From positions 1,839 through 65,838 of the forward strand of contig JASUTE010000007.1 of the NCBI GenBank assembly GCA_030445745.1: 64,000 nucleotides of DNA, written 5' to 3'. This document shows, in pieces, positions 30,221 to 34,874 of the stretch. The position numbers were made by a program, and so were the translations under genes. Numbering within the stretch: position 1 is the stretch's first letter; each line of letters starts with the position of its first letter. The DNA comes from Candidatus Cloacimonadota bacterium (GTDB lineage: Bacteria; Cloacimonadota; Cloacimonadia; Cloacimonadales; TCS61). Under the pieces are notes generated by a model that was not told where the DNA came from, ran no database searches, and was given only the letters and a program-made list of their open reading frames with translations.

Positions 30221-30255
30221 AAAAAAGACCGTCGCTTACATTAGCGGCGGTCTTT
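30216..30255. terminator. Terminator hairpin, copy 1 of a 40-bp exact direct repeat
   Basis: AATAAAAAAAAGACCGTCGCTTACATTAGCGGCGGTCTTT. Stem agaccgtcgct/agcggcggtct. The 8-nt A-run gives the strong U-tract on the minus strand. Confidence 0.75.
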
Positions 30256-30388: not shown

Positions 30389-31381
30389 ATGCTATTTGGT
30401 AAAAGTAAAATTATTTTGTTTATTGTGATTTTATGTTTTACTACTGTTTTATTAGAAGCTGCTGAATTTGGGATAAAAATAGGTACAGGTTATTCCAATT
30501 TAGAAAATGGTACATATAAAATGGAATTTAATGGACTGCGGGAATCACAATATTATGAGGCGTTCTACGATTCAGCAGGTCAAGAAACGATTATCGACAC
30601 TGCTTTTATAAAAATGATGTTAACCACCACAACAGAAGCGGAAATTGAAAATAAAATGACTTTTTCAGGTGGTTTTTATGCACGTTTTAATTTACATAAA
30701 AATGTAAATAATAAAGAAAAATCTTATAATGGAATAAATCTACTACTGGAAACCAATTATCAACATCACAAGGTTACATTTAAGTTTGGTAATTCAATCA
30801 ATAACTCTATTGTTACTTCACCAGATGTAACTCAAACTATGATAAATTCTGGCCAAATAAGCAATACCGAGGCTACAAATATTATTTCAGGAGTTAACAG
30901 CAATCCGACTTCTGATTTGAGTTTGGATTATGTAGAAATACCATTAATGCTAGAATTGATGAAAAAGTATGAAAAAACAGAAAGTCCCTACCATAGTGCA
31001 TATATATATTTTGGTCCTGCTTTACGGGTTTGCTTAAATAGTGTGGAAGAAATTTCTAAAGATCTAAAAAGAATATTGCCTCTTTATGAAGAAGGGCTTA
31101 ATTTCAATTATGAAGCGAGTTCCGATACCGTAACTGTTATTGAGGATTATCGAAAAATAGAAACTAGTAGAACTGAAATAGCTGATAGCTTTAATGAAGT
31201 AACAAAGTCAATTACAGTAGGTTGCGGTATCCAACTTGATAAAATATTTAATTTAGATTTAGGCTCAGATACTTTTTCGTTTGATTTTAGAGCAAACATC
31301 GGATGGGGAAAGATTAATGATTTTTCTAGCAAAGATTTCACTTTAAATAGCTATAACTTTCTGTTAGGCTATAAATTCTAA
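30389..31381 (+). CDS. Outer-membrane beta-barrel protein (porin-like), function unknown
   Basis: 330 aa. Signal peptide (ILFIVILCFTTVLLEA). Alternating-hydrophobic strands. C-terminal ...FLLGYKF. AAGGAGG RBS. Confidence 0.55.
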   Translation: MLFGKSKIILFIVILCFTTVLLEAAEFGIKIGTGYSNLENGTYKMEFNGLRESQYYEAFYDSAGQETIIDTAFIKMMLTTTTEAEIENKMTFSGGFYARFNLHKNVNNKEKSYNGINLLLETNYQHHKVTFKFGNSINNSIVTSPDVTQTMINSGQISNTEATNIISGVNSNPTSDLSLDYVEIPLMLELMKKYEKTESPYHSAYIYFGPALRVCLNSVEEISKDLKRILPLYEEGLNFNYEASSDTVTVIEDYRKIETSRTEIADSFNEVTKSITVGCGIQLDKIFNLDLGSDTFSFDFRANIGWGKINDFSSKDFTLNSYNFLLGYKF

Positions 31382-31419
31382 TAAAAAAAAGACCGTCGCT
31401 TACATTAGCGGCGGTCTTT
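31380..31419. terminator. Terminator hairpin, copy 2 of the 40-bp exact direct repeat (serves galE on the minus strand)
   Basis: Identical 40 nt to 30216-30255. On the minus strand the hairpin is followed by TTTTTTTT, 22 nt after the galE stop. Confidence 0.8.
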
Positions 31420-31441: not shown

Positions 31442-32449
31442 TTAGTAACCTTCCGGATTATTTTTCTGCCAGCGCCAGGAGTCCTCGCACATTTTTAGTA
31501 GGTCATATTGTGCCTTCCAGCCCAAATCTTTAGCGGCTTTGGAAGCATCAGCGTAACATTCGCCGATATCACCGGGGCGTCTTGCGGTAATTTGGTAAGG
31601 AATTTTTTTGCCGCTAACCTGAGAAAAAGCAGCTATCACTTCCAATACGGAATATCCGCGCCCTGTCCCTAAATTATAGGTGACTATGCCGGGTTTTTCT
31701 TGTAATTTTTGCAAAGCTGCTAAATGTCCCCGAGCCAGATCGACCACGTGGATATAATCACGCACGCCGGTGCCATCAGCTGTTTGGTAATCGTTACCAA
31801 ACACATTCAATTTTTTACGTTTTCCCACAGCAACCTGAGAAATATATGGCATCAAATTATTGGGAATACCTTGCGGATCTTCACCCATAGTGCCAGAAGG
31901 ATGAGCTCCCACTGGGTTAAAATAGCGGAGCAGAGCTACATTCCAGCTACTATCGGCATTGTAAAGATCGCGCATAATTTGTTCGATCATTAATTTGCTG
32001 GTACCGTAGGGATTGGTAGTATGTAGTGGGAAATCCTCGGTGATGGGTACCGTTTCCGGCTCGCCATAAACTGTTGCCGAGCTGGAAAAAACTATATCTT
32101 TAATGTTATATTGTGTCATAACTTGCAGAAGAACCAGAGAGCCATTCACATTATTTTCATAGTAAGCCAAGGGTTTAGCTACCGATTCTCCTACAGCTTT
32201 CAATCCGGCAAAGTGAATAACAGCTTCTATGTGGTTTTCCTGGAATATCTTGTGCAGAGCTGCGCTATCACGAATATCTTCTTGGTAGAATTTAGGTTTA
32301 TTACCTGTTAGGTTGGAAATGCGGTTCAATACTTCTTGTTTACTGTTGGAAAGATTATCGATTATAACTACCCGGTGACCAGCTTGCATCAGTTCCACCA
32401 CAGTGTGGCTGCCGATATAGCCAGTACCACCTGTTACTAATATATTCAT
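31442..32449 (-). CDS. galE: UDP-glucose 4-epimerase
   Basis: 335 aa. [15 protein letters not shown]..., YGxxK ([10 protein letters not shown]), full-length GalE pattern. Confidence 0.95.
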
Positions 32450-32508
32450 ATAAGATTTATCCTTTCTTATGTTTAAATTTCAACTTACAGTTCTCGGCTA
32501 GTGGAATC
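32419..32508 (-). repeat. Direct repeat DR1-proximal (galE 5'UTR plus first 10 codons plus 1 nt)
   Basis: 90 nt identical to 32760-32849 by direct comparison. Confidence 0.9.
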
Positions 32509-32759
32509 TCGCTTTCAGCGGGAATTTGAAAATGAATTTATATAATTTTTAAGACGTTTTTTAGGGCATCTTTTTTTAAACAAACTTCGTAATAAACTAA
32601 TTTCAAAGGAACTCTATATTTTGTTGCTGTAACATCACGTTATTGTGTTGTTTTAACCGCTCTATTAAATCTTTAGTAAAACCGTAATAATATTTATTAT
32701 CTTTTTAGCTTATAAGCACTTAGGTATAATATTTCATTTTCAAATTATTCCACCTGGCA
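32509..32759 (-). mobile_element. Decayed GIY-YIG cassette (pseudogene) inserted upstream of galE
   Basis: Same junction TGCCAGGTGGAATAATTTGAAA-ATG as the intact copy. Reads MKYYT*VLIS*KDNKYYYGFTKDLIERLKQHNN..., then a frameshift and a ~30-nt deletion relative to 33933-34205. Confidence 0.75.
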
Positions 32760-32849
32760 AGCCAGTACCACCTGTTACTAATATATTCATATAAGATTTA
32801 TCCTTTCTTATGTTTAAATTTCAACTTACAGTTCTCGGCTAGTGGAATC
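32760..32849 (-). repeat. Direct repeat DR1-distal (copy of galE 5'UTR plus start plus 10 codons)
   Basis: 90/90 identity to 32419-32508. Continues into the cassette junction instead of into galE. Confidence 0.9.
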
Positions 32850-32909
32850 CCGATCTCCTCGGGTGAAGTAAACTAAGATTCAATCCTAAGCTACAGAACT
32901 GTTTTATTT

Positions 32910-33869
32910 CTATAACTCGGGTAAAAAGCCGTTTTCTGTTTGTAGTAGATTTAAATATTGGGAAACACCTTTTTCTAAAGAGGTGAATTCTGTTTTATAC
33001 CCGGCATTTCTCAGGTTATTCAGATCGGCTTTAGTAAAGGTTTGGTATGTATCTTCCAGATCTTGGGGGAAAGGGATAGGCGCGATGCTGCTTTCTGGAA
33101 ATTGGGATTGTACAAGTTCAGCCAGTTTTTGAAAACTGCGTGCTTCCCCACTCCCACAGTTAAAAATACCCGATTTTTCCAAATTTTCCAAGAAAAATAA
33201 ATTAACATCAACAGCATCCTCTACCCAGATAAAATCGCGCAGATAGTTGTCACTGCCTTCAAACACACTTATCTTTCCCTCTTTTGCAGCCTGATGATAG
33301 AAGTGATAAATCACCGAAGCCATGCGACCTTTATGGTTTTCTTGAGGACCATATACATTAAAATAGCGTAGCCCGACAACCTGAGATAGCTCTTTTTTGC
33401 TAAAATTATTAGTTAGACGGCGGACGTAGTTGTCGAAAGCAAATTTGGAAAAACCGTAGATGTTCAAGGGATATTCACTGGCGCGTTCTTCTTTGAAACC
33501 ATTTTTGCCATGGCCATAAGTGGCAGCACTGGAAGCATAGATGAAATTTATTTTGTTGTTAAGGGCAAACTTAAGTAATTTTTTGGAATAAGTGTAGTTG
33601 TTATCCATCATATATTTTCCATCTTGTTCAACCGTGGAAGAGCAGGCACCTTGATGAAAGATGATATCGTAATCGTTGAATTGCTCCAACTGTTGTAAAA
33701 AATCATTTTTGTTTATGTAATCTAGGAATTTTAATCTATTCAAATTTAAATGTTTGGCAGCATTACTAAGGTTATCTACAATTGTGATATGGTCAAAACC
33801 ACGTTTGTTGAGTCCATATACCAGGTTACTGCCGATGAAGCCAGCCCCTCCAGTTACTATTATTTTCAT
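32910..33869 (-). CDS. hldD: ADP-L-glycero-D-manno-heptose 6-epimerase
   Basis: MKIIVTGGAGFIGSNLVYGLNKRGFDHITIVDNLSNAAKHLNL... closely follows the RfaD/HldD N-terminus. Start preferred at the second ATG (33869); the track ORF begins at 33887. Confidence 0.88.
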   Translation of the reverse strand: MKIIVTGGAGFIGSNLVYGLNKRGFDHITIVDNLSNAAKHLNLNRLKFLDYINKNDFLQQLEQFNDYDIIFHQGACSSTVEQDGKYMMDNNYTYSKKLLKFALNNKINFIYASSAATYGHGKNGFKEERASEYPLNIYGFSKFAFDNYVRRLTNNFSKKELSQVVGLRYFNVYGPQENHKGRMASVIYHFYHQAAKEGKISVFEGSDNYLRDFIWVEDAVDVNLFFLENLEKSGIFNCGSGEARSFQKLAELVQSQFPESSIAPIPFPQDLEDTYQTFTKADLNNLRNAGYKTEFTSLEKGVSQYLNLLQTENGFLPEL

Positions 33870-33943
33870 AAGTTTAAATCCTTTCATTAAAAAAAATATA
33901 ACTTTATGTTCTCGGCCAGTGGAATCCCGCTTTCAGCGGGAAT
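33838..33943 (-). repeat. Direct repeat DR2-proximal (hairpin motif plus hldD 5'UTR plus first 10 codons)
   Basis: 106 nt matching 34227-34332 with one mismatch (33915 g vs 34304 a). Confidence 0.9.
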
Positions 33944-34205
33944 TTGAAAATGAATTTAAATAATTCTTAAGACGGTTTTTCAGAAACATTTTACCATGAT
34001 GGGTCTTAAAATACTTTTCTCTTTTTAGGGCATCTTTCTTATTAAAACAAACTTCGTAATAAACTAATTTCAATGGAGTTCTATATTTCGTTGCTGTAAT
34101 ATCACTGTTATTGTGTTGTTTTAACCGCTCTATTAAATCTTTAGTAAAACCGTAATAATATTTATTATCTTTTTCGCTTTTAAGTACATAGGTATAATAT
34201 TTCAT
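33933..34205 (-). CDS. GIY-YIG nuclease family protein (minimal URI domain, COG2827/YhbQ-like)
   Basis: 90 aa from the ATG at 34205: MKYYTYVLKSEKDNKYYYGFTKDLIERLKQHNN...LVYYEVCFNKKDALKREKYFK (GIY..YxG, R..xH, E motifs). The stop TGA lies in the loop of the hairpin that begins DR2. Confidence 0.85.
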   Translation of the reverse strand: MKYYTYVLKSEKDNKYYYGFTKDLIERLKQHNNSDITATKYRTPLKLVYYEVCFNKKDALKREKYFKTHHGKMFLKNRLKNYLNSFSNSR

Positions 34206-34226
34206 TTTCAAATTATTCCACCTGGC

Positions 34227-34332
34227 AAGCCAGCCCCTCCAGTTACTATTATTTTCATAAGTTTAAATCCTTTCATTAAAAAAAATATAACTTTATGTTC
34301 TCGACCAGTGGAATCCCGCTTTCAGCGGGAAT
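34227..34332 (-). repeat. Direct repeat DR2-distal (copy of hairpin plus hldD 5'UTR plus start plus 10 codons)
   Basis: 105/106 identity to 33838-33943. Runs into the junction TGCCAGGTGGAATAATTTGAAA. Confidence 0.9.
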
Positions 34333-34874
34333 ATTTTTCCTAAGCATGCTTTTCTTGGACTTTGCAGTAAATTAGCATTATCAGATTTCTGCAAAATTTT
34401 CTTAAAGTTTTTTTATAAGTTTTCTCCGCCCACTAAATTCTACCACAATGAAAAATTCCAGCAGTTTTCAGGTAGCCTAATATTTCTGAGCAGAGTTTTC
34501 TCTGTCTTCTGCTTGGAAACGGAAACGAGGATTTTGTGGCTTCTCTTAAGCTATATCCAGGTCAGGTAAATTTGCCAATCTCAGCTTTTTGATAGAGTCC
34601 ATTTTCAACATTTTTTCGGCAACATTCTATCGTTGCGCCTAAATGAATAACATCGAGATTTAGCTGGTCCGATTCTTTGCTTTAGCTGTTGGCGAAATAA
34701 ACGAGCAAATAACCAGATAACCCCAGCGTTTCAAAGAGGACAAAATCTATTGCAAAAATTTACTAGGGATATTACTCGGTTTAATAAATCGGGGATGATG
34801 ACGAGTTTTATTTCATAATTTTTTTGCAAAATAAAGCAATGTCAAAATTGCATATTCACAGTGAAGTGAAAGTT

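Follow-up and report, generated by a model that had tools for sequence, protein, structure and literature searches.

The hldD and galE genes in the 64-kb stretch of DNA analyzed here (the window) each carry a small GIY-YIG nuclease cassette at their 5' end, and, judging from sequence comparisons, this cassette is probably a selfish element of the homing type that is site-specific and carries a replacement 5' end with it. The cassette would bring spare first codons of the gene, so the gene still works despite the insertion. The core element is ~330 bp long, with a left inverted repeat, a gene for a 90-residue single-domain GIY-YIG protein, and a right inverted repeat. In the lineage that occupies extended-SDR (epimerase/dehydratase) genes, the right end seems to be followed by a patch. 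It consists of ~40 nt of spacer, including a ribosome-binding site (RBS), and of the start of the gene from its ATG through 11-17 codons, as far as ...T-G-x-x-G-F. In the literature searched, we found no description of a cassette with a carried replacement 5' end. The statement in the initial annotation that no element with this architecture has been described holds for that literature, with the caveat of the Ssn family, reported in 2025, in which small GIY-YIG genes are bracketed by hairpins (PMC11893778).

Both loci lie on the minus strand and share the order repeat, junction, cassette, repeat, and gene. The direct repeat at hldD is 106 nt long and 99% identical (34332-34227 and 33943-33838), with a single T/C mismatch (34303 versus 33914). 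The one at galE is 90 nt long and exact (32849-32760 and 32508-32419), and a longer repeat of 104 nt at 95% identity is also present (32863-32760 and 32522-32419). Each repeat pair encloses a 22-nt junction, which is the same at both loci, and a GIY-YIG cassette, which is intact at hldD and decayed at galE. The 22-mer, TGCCAGGTGGAATAATTTGAAA, has exactly two copies (34227-34206 and 32759-32738), with 0 expected from shuffles. Both repeats stop directly after ...CTGGCT within the GxGxxG codons of hldD and galE, and the GGNRCNGGNTWYATHGG pattern has two matches in the window, only at these two genes. The initial annotation had described this two-locus layout, the common junction, an intact 90-residue ORF at 34205-33933, a decayed copy at galE, and a common endpoint in the glycine-rich loop, and all of these parts were found.

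The hldD locus begins with a solo right end (34297-34332), which contains the hairpin TCCCGCTGAAAGCGGGA and the right inverted repeat GATTCCACTGGTCGAGAAC and has the same sequence as the intact cassette at its right end. Just 5' of it, bases ~34333-34360 show a faint likeness to the cassette 3' coding end. The first copy of the hldD 5' segment follows (34227-34296), with a spacer, the RBS AAAGGA, an ATG at 34258, and the codons MKIIVTGGAG. This stub ORF (34258-34208, MKIIVTGGAGLPGGII) runs into the left end and stops at a TGA, with 2 nt between this stop and the nuclease ATG. Positions 34206-34227 hold the left junction and the left inverted repeat, (T)GCCAGGTGGAATAATTTGAAA, in which GCCAG is complementary to CTGGC of the target, and the nuclease gene occupies 33933-34205. 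The right end of the cassette (33908-33954) consists of CATTTTCAAATT, which pairs with the left end, the inserted hairpin CCCGCTGAAAGCGGG, and then ATTCCACTGGCCGAGAAC; the inverted repeat (I9) pairs 33941-33954 with 34201-34214. The second copy of the 5' segment (33838-33907; spacer, RBS, ATG at 33869, and the first 11 codons) serves the working gene, a full-length hldD (ADP-glyceromanno-heptose 6-epimerase, 32910-33869; TIGR02197, 396 bits, above the cut-off). Its target, ...GGGGCTGGCT followed by TCATCGG, lies at 33848-33832.

The galE locus also begins with a solo right end (32831-32864; hairpin CCCGAGGAGATCGGG and GATTCCACTAGCCGAGAAC), which is found in a cassette-free allele (L005) and in a relative (L152) as well. 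It is followed by the first copy of the 5' segment (32760-32830, with a 16-residue stub ORF at 32790-32740), the left junction with the left inverted repeat (32738-32759), the GIY-YIG pseudogene (32524-32737), and the right end (32490-32544), which contains part of the terminal inverted repeat, the hairpin CCCGCTGAAAGCGAG, and ATTCCACTAGCCGAGAAC. The inverted repeat (I4) pairs 32523-32544 with 32725-32746. The second copy of the 5' segment, identified by repeat comparison (32419-32489), serves a full-length galE (UDP-glucose 4-epimerase, 31442-32449; TIGR01179, 487 bits), with the target ...GGTACTGGCT followed by ATATCGG at 32428-32412. The solo right end at hldD is probably a remnant of an older cassette. 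The initial annotation regarded the 106- and 90-bp copies as the host 5' end. The repeats are real, but their first ~19-36 nt (the hairpin and GATTCCACTRGCCGAGAAC) are the right inverted end of the cassette and not host UTR. The UTRs were also said to differ otherwise, which is contradicted by the 75% identity between the two loci from the right end to the junction, versus 53% for the gene bodies.

The nuclease encoded at hldD matches PF01541 as its sole domain (residues 2-72; E 2.5e-16, 60 bits versus a cut-off of 22.6), and an NCBIfam search with it gave no match. All 27 family-invariant residues are retained, and Y6, Y17, R27, H31, E51, and E63 are invariant in an alignment of 25 sequences including the window protein. 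The AlphaFold2 model (pLDDT 91) contains a three-stranded sheet and helices, and Foldseek matched it to UPF0213 (YhbQ/YazA-type), Slx1, and I-TevI catalytic domains, the best being BH0048, Slx1, and HIGLE (query-relative TM-score ~0.6). These observations, namely the invariant residues and a confidently predicted GIY-YIG fold nearest to the structure-specific Slx1, suggest that the nuclease appears to be functional. The minimal GIY-YIG core is shared with UPF0213 and Slx1, which give the best sequence and fold matches, but at only ~29-41% identity; the best PDB sequence matches are 1zg2 (E 2.7e-8) and 1ywl (E 3.9e-7). To our knowledge, UPF0213 genes are not mobile, and Slx1 requires Slx4 and acts on branched DNA. 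The cassette copy at galE is 90-93% identical in DNA and contains two in-frame stops, a frameshifting 1-nt deletion, and a ~48-nt deletion. The window holds one intact and one dead copy, and the exact nuclease protein was found only at hldD; the element is not multiplying within this organism, which counts against homing.

We surveyed relatives at the best 80 homologue loci, with some analyses performed on 81 loci. Relatives with 54-67% identity share the exact insertion codon, between F and I of ...T-G-x-x-G-F-I-G, in PF01370 epimerase/dehydratase genes, each with a 5'-end stub upstream. Relatives of the nuclease in this identity range, at any insertion site, are found in Bacteroidota, Ignavibacteriota, Cloacimonadota, Desulfobacterota, Patescibacteria, Nitrospirota, Planctomycetota, and Bdellovibrionota, a distribution that suggests horizontal spread. 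Twelve of the best 80 loci are at this codon (L012, L016, L018, L020, L032, L040, L044, L051, L061, L063, L082, and L085). In these loci, ...TG(G/T/M/A)AGF is fused to the left repeat, and an extended-SDR gene restarts 25-46 nt past the right repeat. A thirteenth locus, L049, has its insertion right at a galE ATG. All ten downstream genes tested belong to PF01370, with subfamilies including RfbB, GalE, TviC-like, and others. The SDR-codon loci span Bacteroidota, Balneolaceae, Melioribacter, and Cloacimonadota, and include the isolates Lutibacter agarilyticus DSM 29150, Oceanihabitans sediminis, and Draconibacterium orientale and one complete MAG chromosome. Other nuclease clades occupy other fixed sites: they lie in split PF05635 four-helix-bundle genes, in GxxExxY genes, or at the stop codon of ...FSVRCVKD* genes, and removal of the element from these host genes restores the frame. 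The target class follows the nuclease tree, and site preference thus seems to be heritable within the nuclease family. Target-specific, homing-like insertion had been suggested in the initial annotation, which also proposed to look for further copies behind duplicated N-termini of Rossmann-fold genes. The suggestion is supported here by the same-codon relatives in other phyla, the target class tracking the nuclease tree, and the precise cassette-free allele and tandem arrays described below.

The 5' segment (spacer, RBS, ATG, and first codons) seems to behave as cargo of the element, tracking the element over the host gene. In L152, the segment before hldD, up to the first 11 codons, is 88% identical to the galE segment of the window and 77% to its hldD segment, and the L152 hldD gene itself is 89% identical to the window hldD. 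The cassette remnant in L152 has the same ~48-nt deletion as the galE pseudo-copy of the window. Across loci, stub and working copy differ by 33 synonymous versus 10 non-synonymous codons, and their nucleotide differences by codon position are 12/2/35. These mostly synonymous differences suggest that the two copies diverged as functional genes before juxtaposition, and the target was not simply copied onto itself to give the long repeats seen at SDR genes. At L020, the native stub is MKKVLVTGMAGF, and both tandem units carry MSKHKIKKILVTGMAGF instead. Donor-derived sequence beside the insertion, as in co-conversion, is thus seen in the codon differences, the 88% versus 77% identity, and the L020 units. 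The proposal of an imported patch draws on L152 and other genomes, as the two repeat copies in the window are identical. The idea that the interrupted 5' end is rebuilt is therefore right, but this is not simply a local duplication of the host: the segment is likely cargo, and the repeat includes the right end of the element.

The left end matches the target at degenerate codon positions. When the GCn-GGn wobble bases of the working copies were compared with the complement of the left repeat, with registers assigned by hand and loci not fully independent, 22 of 28 matched (permutation mean 11.1, P = 5e-5). When each related group was reduced to a single locus, 16 of 20 matched (P = 7.5e-4), and the stubs gave 17 of 28. 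In the proposed homing cycle, the nuclease would recognize a motif that can pair with the left end of the element: GCCAG/CTGGC in the window and ACCCTG/CAGGGT in most relatives. This motif happens to be encoded by the A/T-G-F codons in the glycine-rich loop, and the DNA would be broken between ...GGNTT(C) and A. Candidate substrates are single- or double-stranded DNA with GGAGGGGCTGGCTTCATCGGC, the left junction, or the right end. As the anatomy suggests, break repair would then use as its template an allele or paralogue that is already occupied, with the left end pairing with the donor stub and synthesis crossing the cassette and patch and rejoining in the conserved F-I-G-S codons. In the anatomy of the loci, the recipient promoter, RBS, and first codons persist as a stub, which ends within the left repeat and leaves 2 nt to the start of the nuclease gene. 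The nuclease would thus depend on transcription and translation by the host, and the intact gene body would be expressed from the imported patch. Because a perfect target remains in the patched gene, further rounds can yield tandem arrays, and such arrays are found at L012, L020, and L032. Finally, recombination between the flanking repeats appears to cause precise loss, homogenized copies, and internal deletions down to ORF-less minis. Retention of a perfect target by the patched gene counts against homing, as a classical homing element normally destroys its target. Cleavage of only single-stranded DNA by Ssn relatives counts against homing by double-strand breaks (PMC11893778).

Parts of this architecture are found in known systems. 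The Seg/Mob genes of T-even phages are likewise nuclease-only selfish genes aimed at a conserved sequence of a specific gene. These free-standing GIY-YIG genes spread by break repair that co-converts flanking markers and leaves mosaic flanks ('intronless homing'). Their enzymes are ~200-250 residues long, have separate DNA-binding domains, and cut duplex DNA; the genes lie between genes, lack inverted ends, and neither duplicate nor replace an end of the target gene. They are also phage-borne, whereas 2.9 million viral contigs yielded only one relative. A further parallel comes from islands and phages that target tRNA/tmRNA genes by means of tyrosine integrases: they insert in the gene and supply a substitute end, so function is kept, and their flanking direct repeat allows precise excision. 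In-gene insertion, a substitute gene end, and a flanking direct repeat are shared with the cassette. However, these elements are kilobases long, contain an integrase and att site, and replace the 3' ends of RNA genes, whereas the window unit is ~0.4 kb, encodes only a nuclease, and substitutes for the 5' end of a protein-coding gene, RBS included.

By analogy, the closest known relatives appear to be the Ssn nucleases described in 2025, which the 90-residue single-domain size fits (PMC11893778). The Ssn family (SsnA/NTS; CDD cd10448; Chenal et al., Nat Commun 2025) comprises site-specific single-stranded DNA nucleases whose small single-domain GIY-YIG genes lie between hairpin repeats; the authors remarked on an IS-like 'repeat-gene-repeat' layout and raised mobility only as a hypothesis (PMC11893778). 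The cassette is similar in its ~90-residue GIY-YIG protein without an extra DNA-binding domain, in the inverted-repeat/hairpin DNA around the gene, in the short ORF-less hairpin copies nearby, and in the inner hairpin ATTCCCGCTGAAAGCGGGAT of the window, which resembles the NTS core ATTCCCGCG-MAV-GCGGGAAT. However, the published Ssn-related motif (HGTCWY..YYVSBRH..WNVSBRG..RNCYNB) has 0 matches in the 81 loci and 0 in the window, and NTS positive controls do match; the loci contain their own inverted ends and minis instead. Ssn genes have also not been shown to be mobile, and the text of the Ssn paper contains no fixed-codon insertion in a gene family, gene stub, or carried 5' end, with no occurrence of 'epimerase' (PMC11893778).

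The ends of the cassette bring in another explanation, a 'peel-and-paste'-like single-strand transposon, which we consider unlikely. In single-stranded form, on the lagging strand or in incoming DNA, the two inverted ends would form a stem at which an Ssn-type nuclease cuts, and host enzymes would rejoin the element at a complementary target. Staggered breaks or repair synthesis would give rise to the long SDR repeats as a side effect, and these would persist because only gene-sparing insertions survive. The cassette ends are indeed inverted (GCCAGGTGGAATAATTTGAAA at the left, ...ATTCCACTGGCC at the right), with terminal inverted repeats GCCAGGTGGAATAATTTGAAAATG versus CATTTTCAAATT, a hairpin, and ATTCCACTGGC in the window, and inverted ends occur in most relatives (family median 13.5 nt versus 8 in shuffles). 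ORF-less minis with an end-loop-end structure are present in 12 of 81 loci, in addition to the mini in L152. Simple insertions (L083 and L013) restore the host frame and show no duplicated target bases, as for IS200/IS605, and the element end is complementary to the target. IS200/IS605 and REP/RAYT elements move by HUH Y1 transposases with covalent chemistry. No transposase (DDE, HUH, or serine/tyrosine recombinase) is found in the cassette, whose only ORF encodes the nuclease; GIY-YIG enzymes are hydrolytic and form no covalent intermediate, so they have no strand-transfer chemistry. Hairpin ends, target choice by end pairing, miniature derivatives, and the lack of target-site duplication are nevertheless shared with both families (PMC11893778, discussion). 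In addition, Ssn proteins cut single-stranded DNA only, beside a stem, which two separate strands can form (PMC11893778). Against this explanation, the repeats are not target duplications, as stub and working copy differ mainly synonymously, the 5' segment follows the element and not the host gene, and there are few copies per genome.

Of the cassette-free alleles that the initial annotation proposed to align, one was found, at galE: in the near-identical strain L005, the galE cassette is precisely absent and exactly one repeat is left. A cassette-free hldD allele did not turn up among the assemblies compared, which also counts against homing. The simplest explanation for L005 is secondary loss by repeat recombination, because the more distant L152 already has the galE insertion, with a mini element between intact repeats; L005 is therefore no proof of recent gain. 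Both genes were colonized before the split from this nearest sampled relative, with the hldD copy intact and the galE copy dead. The two repeat copies of the window are identical to each other, as are those of L152, but the window copies differ from the L152 copies. Such precise loss and concerted evolution per lineage are also expected from ordinary RecA recombination, in which the repeats would loop out a circle (cassette and one repeat) that re-enters a homologous 5' segment, the nuclease being a passenger or at most a recombination stimulant. A single crossover of this circle reproduces the repeat-cassette-repeat order. We regard this as quite improbable: it explains neither the same-codon endpoint in unrelated genes and phyla nor the complementarity of the left end to wobble bases, nor how the first repeat arises in a new gene with only ~20 nt of similarity, nor the conservation of the nuclease ORF across phyla.

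It is very improbable that the cassette serves the host, as proposed for Neisseria SsnA/NTS, by marking surface-polysaccharide genes and modulating uptake, recombination, or expression, with old and fixed insertions. The targets are LPS/capsule sugar-nucleotide enzymes, the association with hldD and galE is older than the L152 split, and the inner hairpin resembles the NTS core. In Neisseria, NTS repeats cluster near genes for surface structures, and DNA flanked by NTS is transformed less efficiently when SsnA is present (PMC11893778). However, the galE pseudogene, the mini in L152, and the traceless loss in L005 are what a selfish element in decay would leave behind. In addition, unrelated genes are split by other members of the family, and none of the 81 loci contains the published Ssn-related motif.

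Repeats can be joined wrongly in metagenome assemblies from short reads, and contig L005 begins near the first repeat, but chance similarity or an assembly artefact, a concern of the initial annotation, has a negligible probability, as shuffles expect 0 copies of the junction and end motifs, the window structure is found in at least five independent metagenome assemblies, and equivalent structures are found in isolate genomes and a complete MAG chromosome of other phyla.

Direct reading of the sequence revealed two units of identical build on the minus strand, within positions 34332-31442. At hldD, a 106-nt direct repeat with one mismatch (34332-34227 and 33943-33838) encloses the 22-mer TGCCAGGTGGAATAATTTGAAA (34227-34206) and an intact 90-codon nuclease ORF (34205-33933). 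At galE, the repeat (32849-32760 and 32508-32419) is exact over 90 nt and 95% identical over 104 nt, and it encloses an identical 22-mer (32759-32738) followed by a decayed copy of the nuclease ORF. The intact ORF encodes a GIY-YIG domain (Pfam PF01541, E 2.5e-16), and the host genes encode ADP-glyceromanno-heptose 6-epimerase and UDP-glucose 4-epimerase, both exceeding the curated cut-offs. Both repeats end directly after CTGGCT, within the codons of the glycine-rich NAD-binding loop. The uninterrupted target sequences at the two genes are GGAGGGGCTGGCTTCATCGGC and GGTGGTACTGGCTATATCGGC, and a degenerate target pattern matches only these two places in the 64-kb window, both of which are occupied. 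The junction and end motifs are expected 0 times in shuffled sequence, and at least five independent metagenome assemblies contain the structure. These observations confirm the twin repeat-junction-cassette loci described in the initial annotation, and the feature is real and not due to chance.

The left end of the cassette is GCCAGGTGGAAT-AATTTGAAAATG, and the right end, CATTTTCAAATT-hairpin CCCGCTGAAAGCGGG-ATTCCACTGGCC, is its reverse complement with an inserted 15-nt hairpin. In relatives, the stretch matching this right end encodes the C terminus of the nuclease (...K-S-Y-F/L-T-G). Because the right end mirrors the left end, the hairpin motif plus GATTCCACTRGCCGAGAAC that opens each repeat belongs to the element, and its initial assignment to the host 5' UTR must be abandoned. 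We also rejected the hairpin plus ATTCCACT as a native regulatory element common to both UTRs, since it is homologous to the C-terminal coding or right-repeat region in a Melioribacter MAG (locus L016; L-numbers denote the loci compared) and in L012, and since the motif terminates the cassette itself. An Rfam search of the region returned nothing at the hairpins and only sub-threshold terminator look-alikes, so the motif is not a known RNA family. A solo right end precedes every upstream repeat copy, at hldD and galE alike. The inner 15-nt hairpin (33926-33940, 34315-34329 and 32850-32864) sits between the two halves of the right inverted repeat and occurs in two versions, CCCGCTGAAAGCGGG and CCCGAGGAGATCGGG. 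Its core is similar to the Neisseria NTS/dRS3 repeat (ATTCCC-N8-GGGAAT), and the hairpin might represent a mini element from another Ssn-type family (Ssn being small single-domain GIY-YIG nucleases of ssDNA) nested here, or a site bound by the nuclease.

The upstream copy of the gene start forms a 16-codon stub (MKIIVTGGAGLPGGII, then stop, at hldD), which runs into the left end and terminates at TGA, with the nuclease ATG 2 nt further. The cassette lies in sense orientation relative to the host gene. A promoter and terminator scan gave no convincing promoter of its own (14 promoter-like sites versus 11.7 in shuffles, not clearly higher) and no terminator on its strand (5 terminator-like sites versus 2.8, not clearly higher). 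We infer that host signals probably drive nuclease expression and that expression of the gene body relies on the ribosome-binding site (RBS) of the downstream copy. The longest hldD ORF begins at an upstream ATG (MKGFKL-MKIIV..., 33887-33870), which is the start used in the 325-aa JGI gene call. This ATG falls in the element-derived spacer, and its six codons are also duplicated in the stub copy; the ATG at 33869 is more likely the true start. Tandem repeats made by the element can break assemblies and mislead gene callers, here through a probably wrong start for hldD and through stubs left unannotated.

Outside its own cluster, the window nuclease has no relative above 69% identity and hundreds at 54-69%. 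Scanning one genome per species (GTDB) gave at least 475 relatives, and the best 80 were examined. These belong to Bacteroidota, Ignavibacteriota, Cloacimonadota, Desulfobacterota, Patescibacteria, Nitrospirota, Planctomycetota, Bdellovibrionota and others. The window-type architecture was present in 12 of the 80 loci: a stub (...T-G-x-x-G-F) joined to the left repeat, usually as GGGTTC followed by ACCCTGTGAAAT (read as F-T-P-stop), then the nuclease gene, the right repeat (ATTTCACAGGG...), a spacer of 25-46 nt and an intact extended-SDR (epimerase/dehydratase) gene restarting at ATG. A 13th locus is placed directly at the start codon of a galE gene. Ten downstream genes were tested, and every one belongs to PF01370; NCBIfam identifies among them dTDP-glucose 4,6-dehydratases, GalE, TviC-like enzymes and other epimerases. 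Since extended SDRs make up an estimated fraction of a percent of bacterial genes, 13 of 80 at one codon is not chance. The loci include the isolates Lutibacter agarilyticus DSM 29150, Oceanihabitans sediminis S9-10 and Draconibacterium orientale DSM 25947 and a complete MAG chromosome, which excludes assembly error, and tandem arrays occur at L012, L020 (Lutibacter agarilyticus) and L032. The initial interpretation, in which a nuclease-only cassette has target-specific, homing-like mobility, holds up in essence and now has comparative evidence behind it.

A metagenome scan with the right-end 18-mer ATTCCACTRGYCGAGAAC gave 62 single matches, approximately the number we estimate for chance; all lie within unrelated high-GC coding sequence, and none has a GIY-YIG gene nearby. 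A tblastn search of plasmids with the nuclease returned only three distant UPF0213/YazA matches and no link to Ssn-bearing replicons. Viral contigs contained a single relative, so phages are not the usual carrier. In Oceanihabitans sediminis (L082:2920-2965), a 32-nt palindromic mini element (TACCCTGTGTAAT-GGAGCTC-AATTACACAGGGT) separates the SDR stub from the left end of the full cassette, and this target appears to have been struck twice, once by a non-autonomous copy. The cassette of the Melioribacter MAG is the most similar in DNA to the window's ends, and the SDR gene 3' of it stops after about 42 codons (L016:1069-1190), so that the patched gene has decayed.

Sequence differences separate the stub from the working copy at several loci: in the nine codons that precede the junction, 33 differing codons are synonymous and 10 non-synonymous, and nucleotide differences number 12/2/35 at codon positions 1/2/3. 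This bias indicates that the copies diverged as working genes in separate places and were juxtaposed later, since a stub drifting after local duplication would lack it. In Lutibacter agarilyticus, the native stub encodes MKKVLVTGMAGF, and both tandem units instead start with M(N/S)KHKIKKILVTGMAGF. The two copies are identical in the window, L061, L082 and L085, which reflects either an event within the species or later homogenisation.

The replacement 5' end (the patch) was found only in the SDR lineage among the nuclease clades compared, plausibly because an SDR without its glycine loop would be dead. Elsewhere in the nuclease tree, clades have their own fixed insertion positions in three other multi-copy gene families: inside PF05635 four-helix-bundle ('23S rRNA intervening sequence') genes after ...S-x-G-A-N-Y (L083, L023, L011, L022, L030, L067, L159), inside GxxExxY genes after ...L-E-x-V-Y (L013, L027, L046), and directly 3' of the stop codon of genes ending ...FSVRCVKD (L007, L021, L024, L029, L078). 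Site preference is thus heritable and lineage-specific, as in homing endonucleases. Pfam detects the split halves of the host gene on both sides of the element; taking the element out leaves a continuous reading frame and no duplicated bases (L083, L013). In the GxxExxY genes, the right repeat provides a GTG or ATG that could be a restart for the C-terminal part. Inverted ends are general in the family (median 13.5 nt versus 8 in shuffles), and end-loop-end hairpins of 30-50 nt without an ORF (e.g. ACCCTGTGAAAT-N15-ATTTCACGGGG) are scattered near the nuclease genes of 12 of 81 loci, for example at L011:2051-2091, L022:797-837, L037:3311-3360, L051:2858-2887 and several times at L008. Possibly non-autonomous derivatives, they are similar to hairpin repeats that have been reported near Ssn genes. 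Inverted ends, mini elements and the lack of target duplication lend real support to a route of single-strand transposition, but this would have to proceed without a joining activity, and it leaves the imported patches unexplained.

The closest relatives are consistent with import of the patch. The hldD of L152, the nearest sampled relative, is 89% identical to that of the window. Upstream of it are a decayed 3' half of the cassette, the hairpin, the right end and the 5' segment, with no upstream stub. This remnant shares with the window's galE pseudo-copy an internal deletion of about 48 nt and the TATATAAATTC variant. From right end to junction, the L152 hldD 5' segment is 88% identical to that of window galE and 87% to that of L152 galE but only 77% to that of window hldD, and the gene bodies of hldD and galE are 53% identical. 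The 5' segments thus do not track the host gene, and spacer, RBS, ATG and first codons travel with the cassette between the two paralogues. The initial view that the interrupted 5' end is rebuilt thus survives in that the host gene stays intact, but the codon differences, Lutibacter agarilyticus and L152 argue against a mere local copy. At L152 galE, full repeats of about 95 nt enclose only a mini element (L152:1741-1810; left end TGCCAGGTGGAATAATTTGAAAT, hairpin and right end, no ORF), which as ssDNA is predicted to adopt a three-stem fold (-19.1 kcal/mol, z = -5.8 versus shuffles). The galE insertion is thus older than the split between L152 and the window lineage. The galE copies are identical or nearly so within each of these lineages and different between them, indicating concerted evolution. 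In L005 (JGI 3300035530), a near-identical strain, the hldD-galE spacer is 120 bp versus 461 bp in the window, and galE carries exactly one repeat copy, with the solo right end still ahead and no cassette. Of the two empty alleles sought, a precise one therefore exists for galE, most simply read as secondary loss through recombination between the repeats, but an exact-protein look-up of hldD gave none for that gene. Loss and homogenisation are also what RecA-driven looping out and re-entry of the cassette would produce; this route explains the data in part but leaves the codon specificity unaccounted for.

Direct observation covers the anatomy, the recurrence at a single codon, the imported patches, the tandem arrays, the decay to pseudogene and mini element, and precise loss; a homing-type element with a patch is the account that these support best, one we consider somewhat probable. 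The mobile unit would comprise left end, nuclease, right end and patch. Cleavage would fall between GGNTT(C) and A, repair would use an occupied donor as template, whose stub would pair with the left end, and expression would occur through read-through and translational coupling. Against this account, the sequences are static and movement itself was never seen, the window organism holds one live and one dead copy with no empty hldD allele found, and Ssn-type enzymes cut ssDNA only. The patched gene also retains a perfect target, which may explain the formation of tandem arrays. For the exact window protein and the relative P0005, a single genomic context each was found, which gives no direct sign of recent spread to several sites.

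At its outer end, the left repeat has bases that can pair with the target codons, and together they make a palindrome across that junction: CAGGGT-TC-ACCCTG in most relatives, CTGGC-TT-GCCAG in the window, CGGGC-TT-GCCCG in L016, CTGGTT-TC-AACCAG in L020 and CGGGGT-TC-ACCCCG in L085. Within the target, variation is possible only at the wobble bases of GCn-GGn. In the working copy, these match the element end at 22 of 28 positions (permutation mean 11.1, P = 5e-5), or 16 of 20 when each related group is represented by a single locus (P = 7.5e-4), a match that is suggestive rather than proven because registers were assigned by hand and loci are non-independent. An origin of the outer bases by palindromic fill-in of a hairpinned host end was rejected, since the flanking stub matches at 17 of 28 positions versus 22 of 28 in the downstream working copy, and the same bases pair with the right end in elements at non-SDR sites. 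The nuclease lacks a DNA-binding domain, and its fold as predicted (pLDDT 91) most resembles UPF0213 proteins and Slx1, which recognises the structure of DNA. Both this and the action of Ssn nucleases, which bind a stem, including one assembled from two separate strands, and cut the adjoining ssDNA (PMC11893778), would fit the complementarity of end and target. It is possible, though we think it improbable, that the element's own end serves as a DNA guide, with the target chosen by base pairing and not by protein-DNA contacts. On ssDNA, the left inverted repeat would pair either with the right repeat or with complementary host GCn-GGn-TTy codons of the Rossmann loop, creating the stem that a structure-specific Ssn/Slx1-like nuclease requires, and the cut would fall beside it. 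Such guidance would account for the site specificity of a 90-aa protein without a DNA-binding domain, for the retargeting of sister lineages to other gene families, and for the covariation of wobble bases with the element end.

This architecture was not described in the literature searched. The Ssn family is closest: its proteins are of equal size, its genes also lie in a 'repeat-gene-repeat' arrangement, and the authors who described it suggested mobility as a hypothesis (PMC11893778). The published Ssn-related motif had 0 matches in the homologue loci searched, so we call the element Ssn-like in possible action and not a member of the family. Like phage Seg/Mob homing genes, it would spread site-specifically with co-conversion; like tRNA-targeting islands, it carries a replacement gene end; and like IS200/IS605, it has hairpin ends and possibly pairing-based target choice. 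The full combination is absent from each of these systems, and the sparing of the host gene is unusual. Introns and inteins splice themselves out, and a spare gene end was, to our knowledge, previously a strategy only of integrase-driven islands that target RNA genes at their 3' ends. Supplying a spare promoter-proximal gene end would thus be a third way of living inside an essential gene.

Across bacterial phyla, small GIY-YIG genes with a single domain usually bear the annotation 'putative endonuclease' or even 'excinuclease subunit C'; a biological role, as mobile, site-specific selfish elements, would now be assigned to at least one large branch of this large orphan family. The element would also shuffle 5' ends (RBS and first codons) of surface-polysaccharide genes between paralogues and species, and an Ssn-like role serving the host at these genes may exist as a secondary effect. 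If the complementarity reflects recognition by pairing, it would link to the unexplained specificity of Ssn enzymes, and a 90-residue programmable nuclease would interest tool developers. Together with the portable 5' patch, true guidance would define a new class of bacterial homing element with a naturally guide-programmed minimal nuclease.

Copies of one 32-nt G+C-rich hairpin (AAAGACCGCCGCTAATGTAAGCGACGGTCTTT), each followed by a T-run, lie at 30224-30255 and 31388-31419, bracketing a 330-aa ORF (30389-31381). They gave sub-threshold Rfam matches to STnc240 (36 and 32 bits versus a gathering score of 55) and look like bidirectional terminators, and the presence of identical copies 1.2 kb apart suggests a small repeated terminator element.
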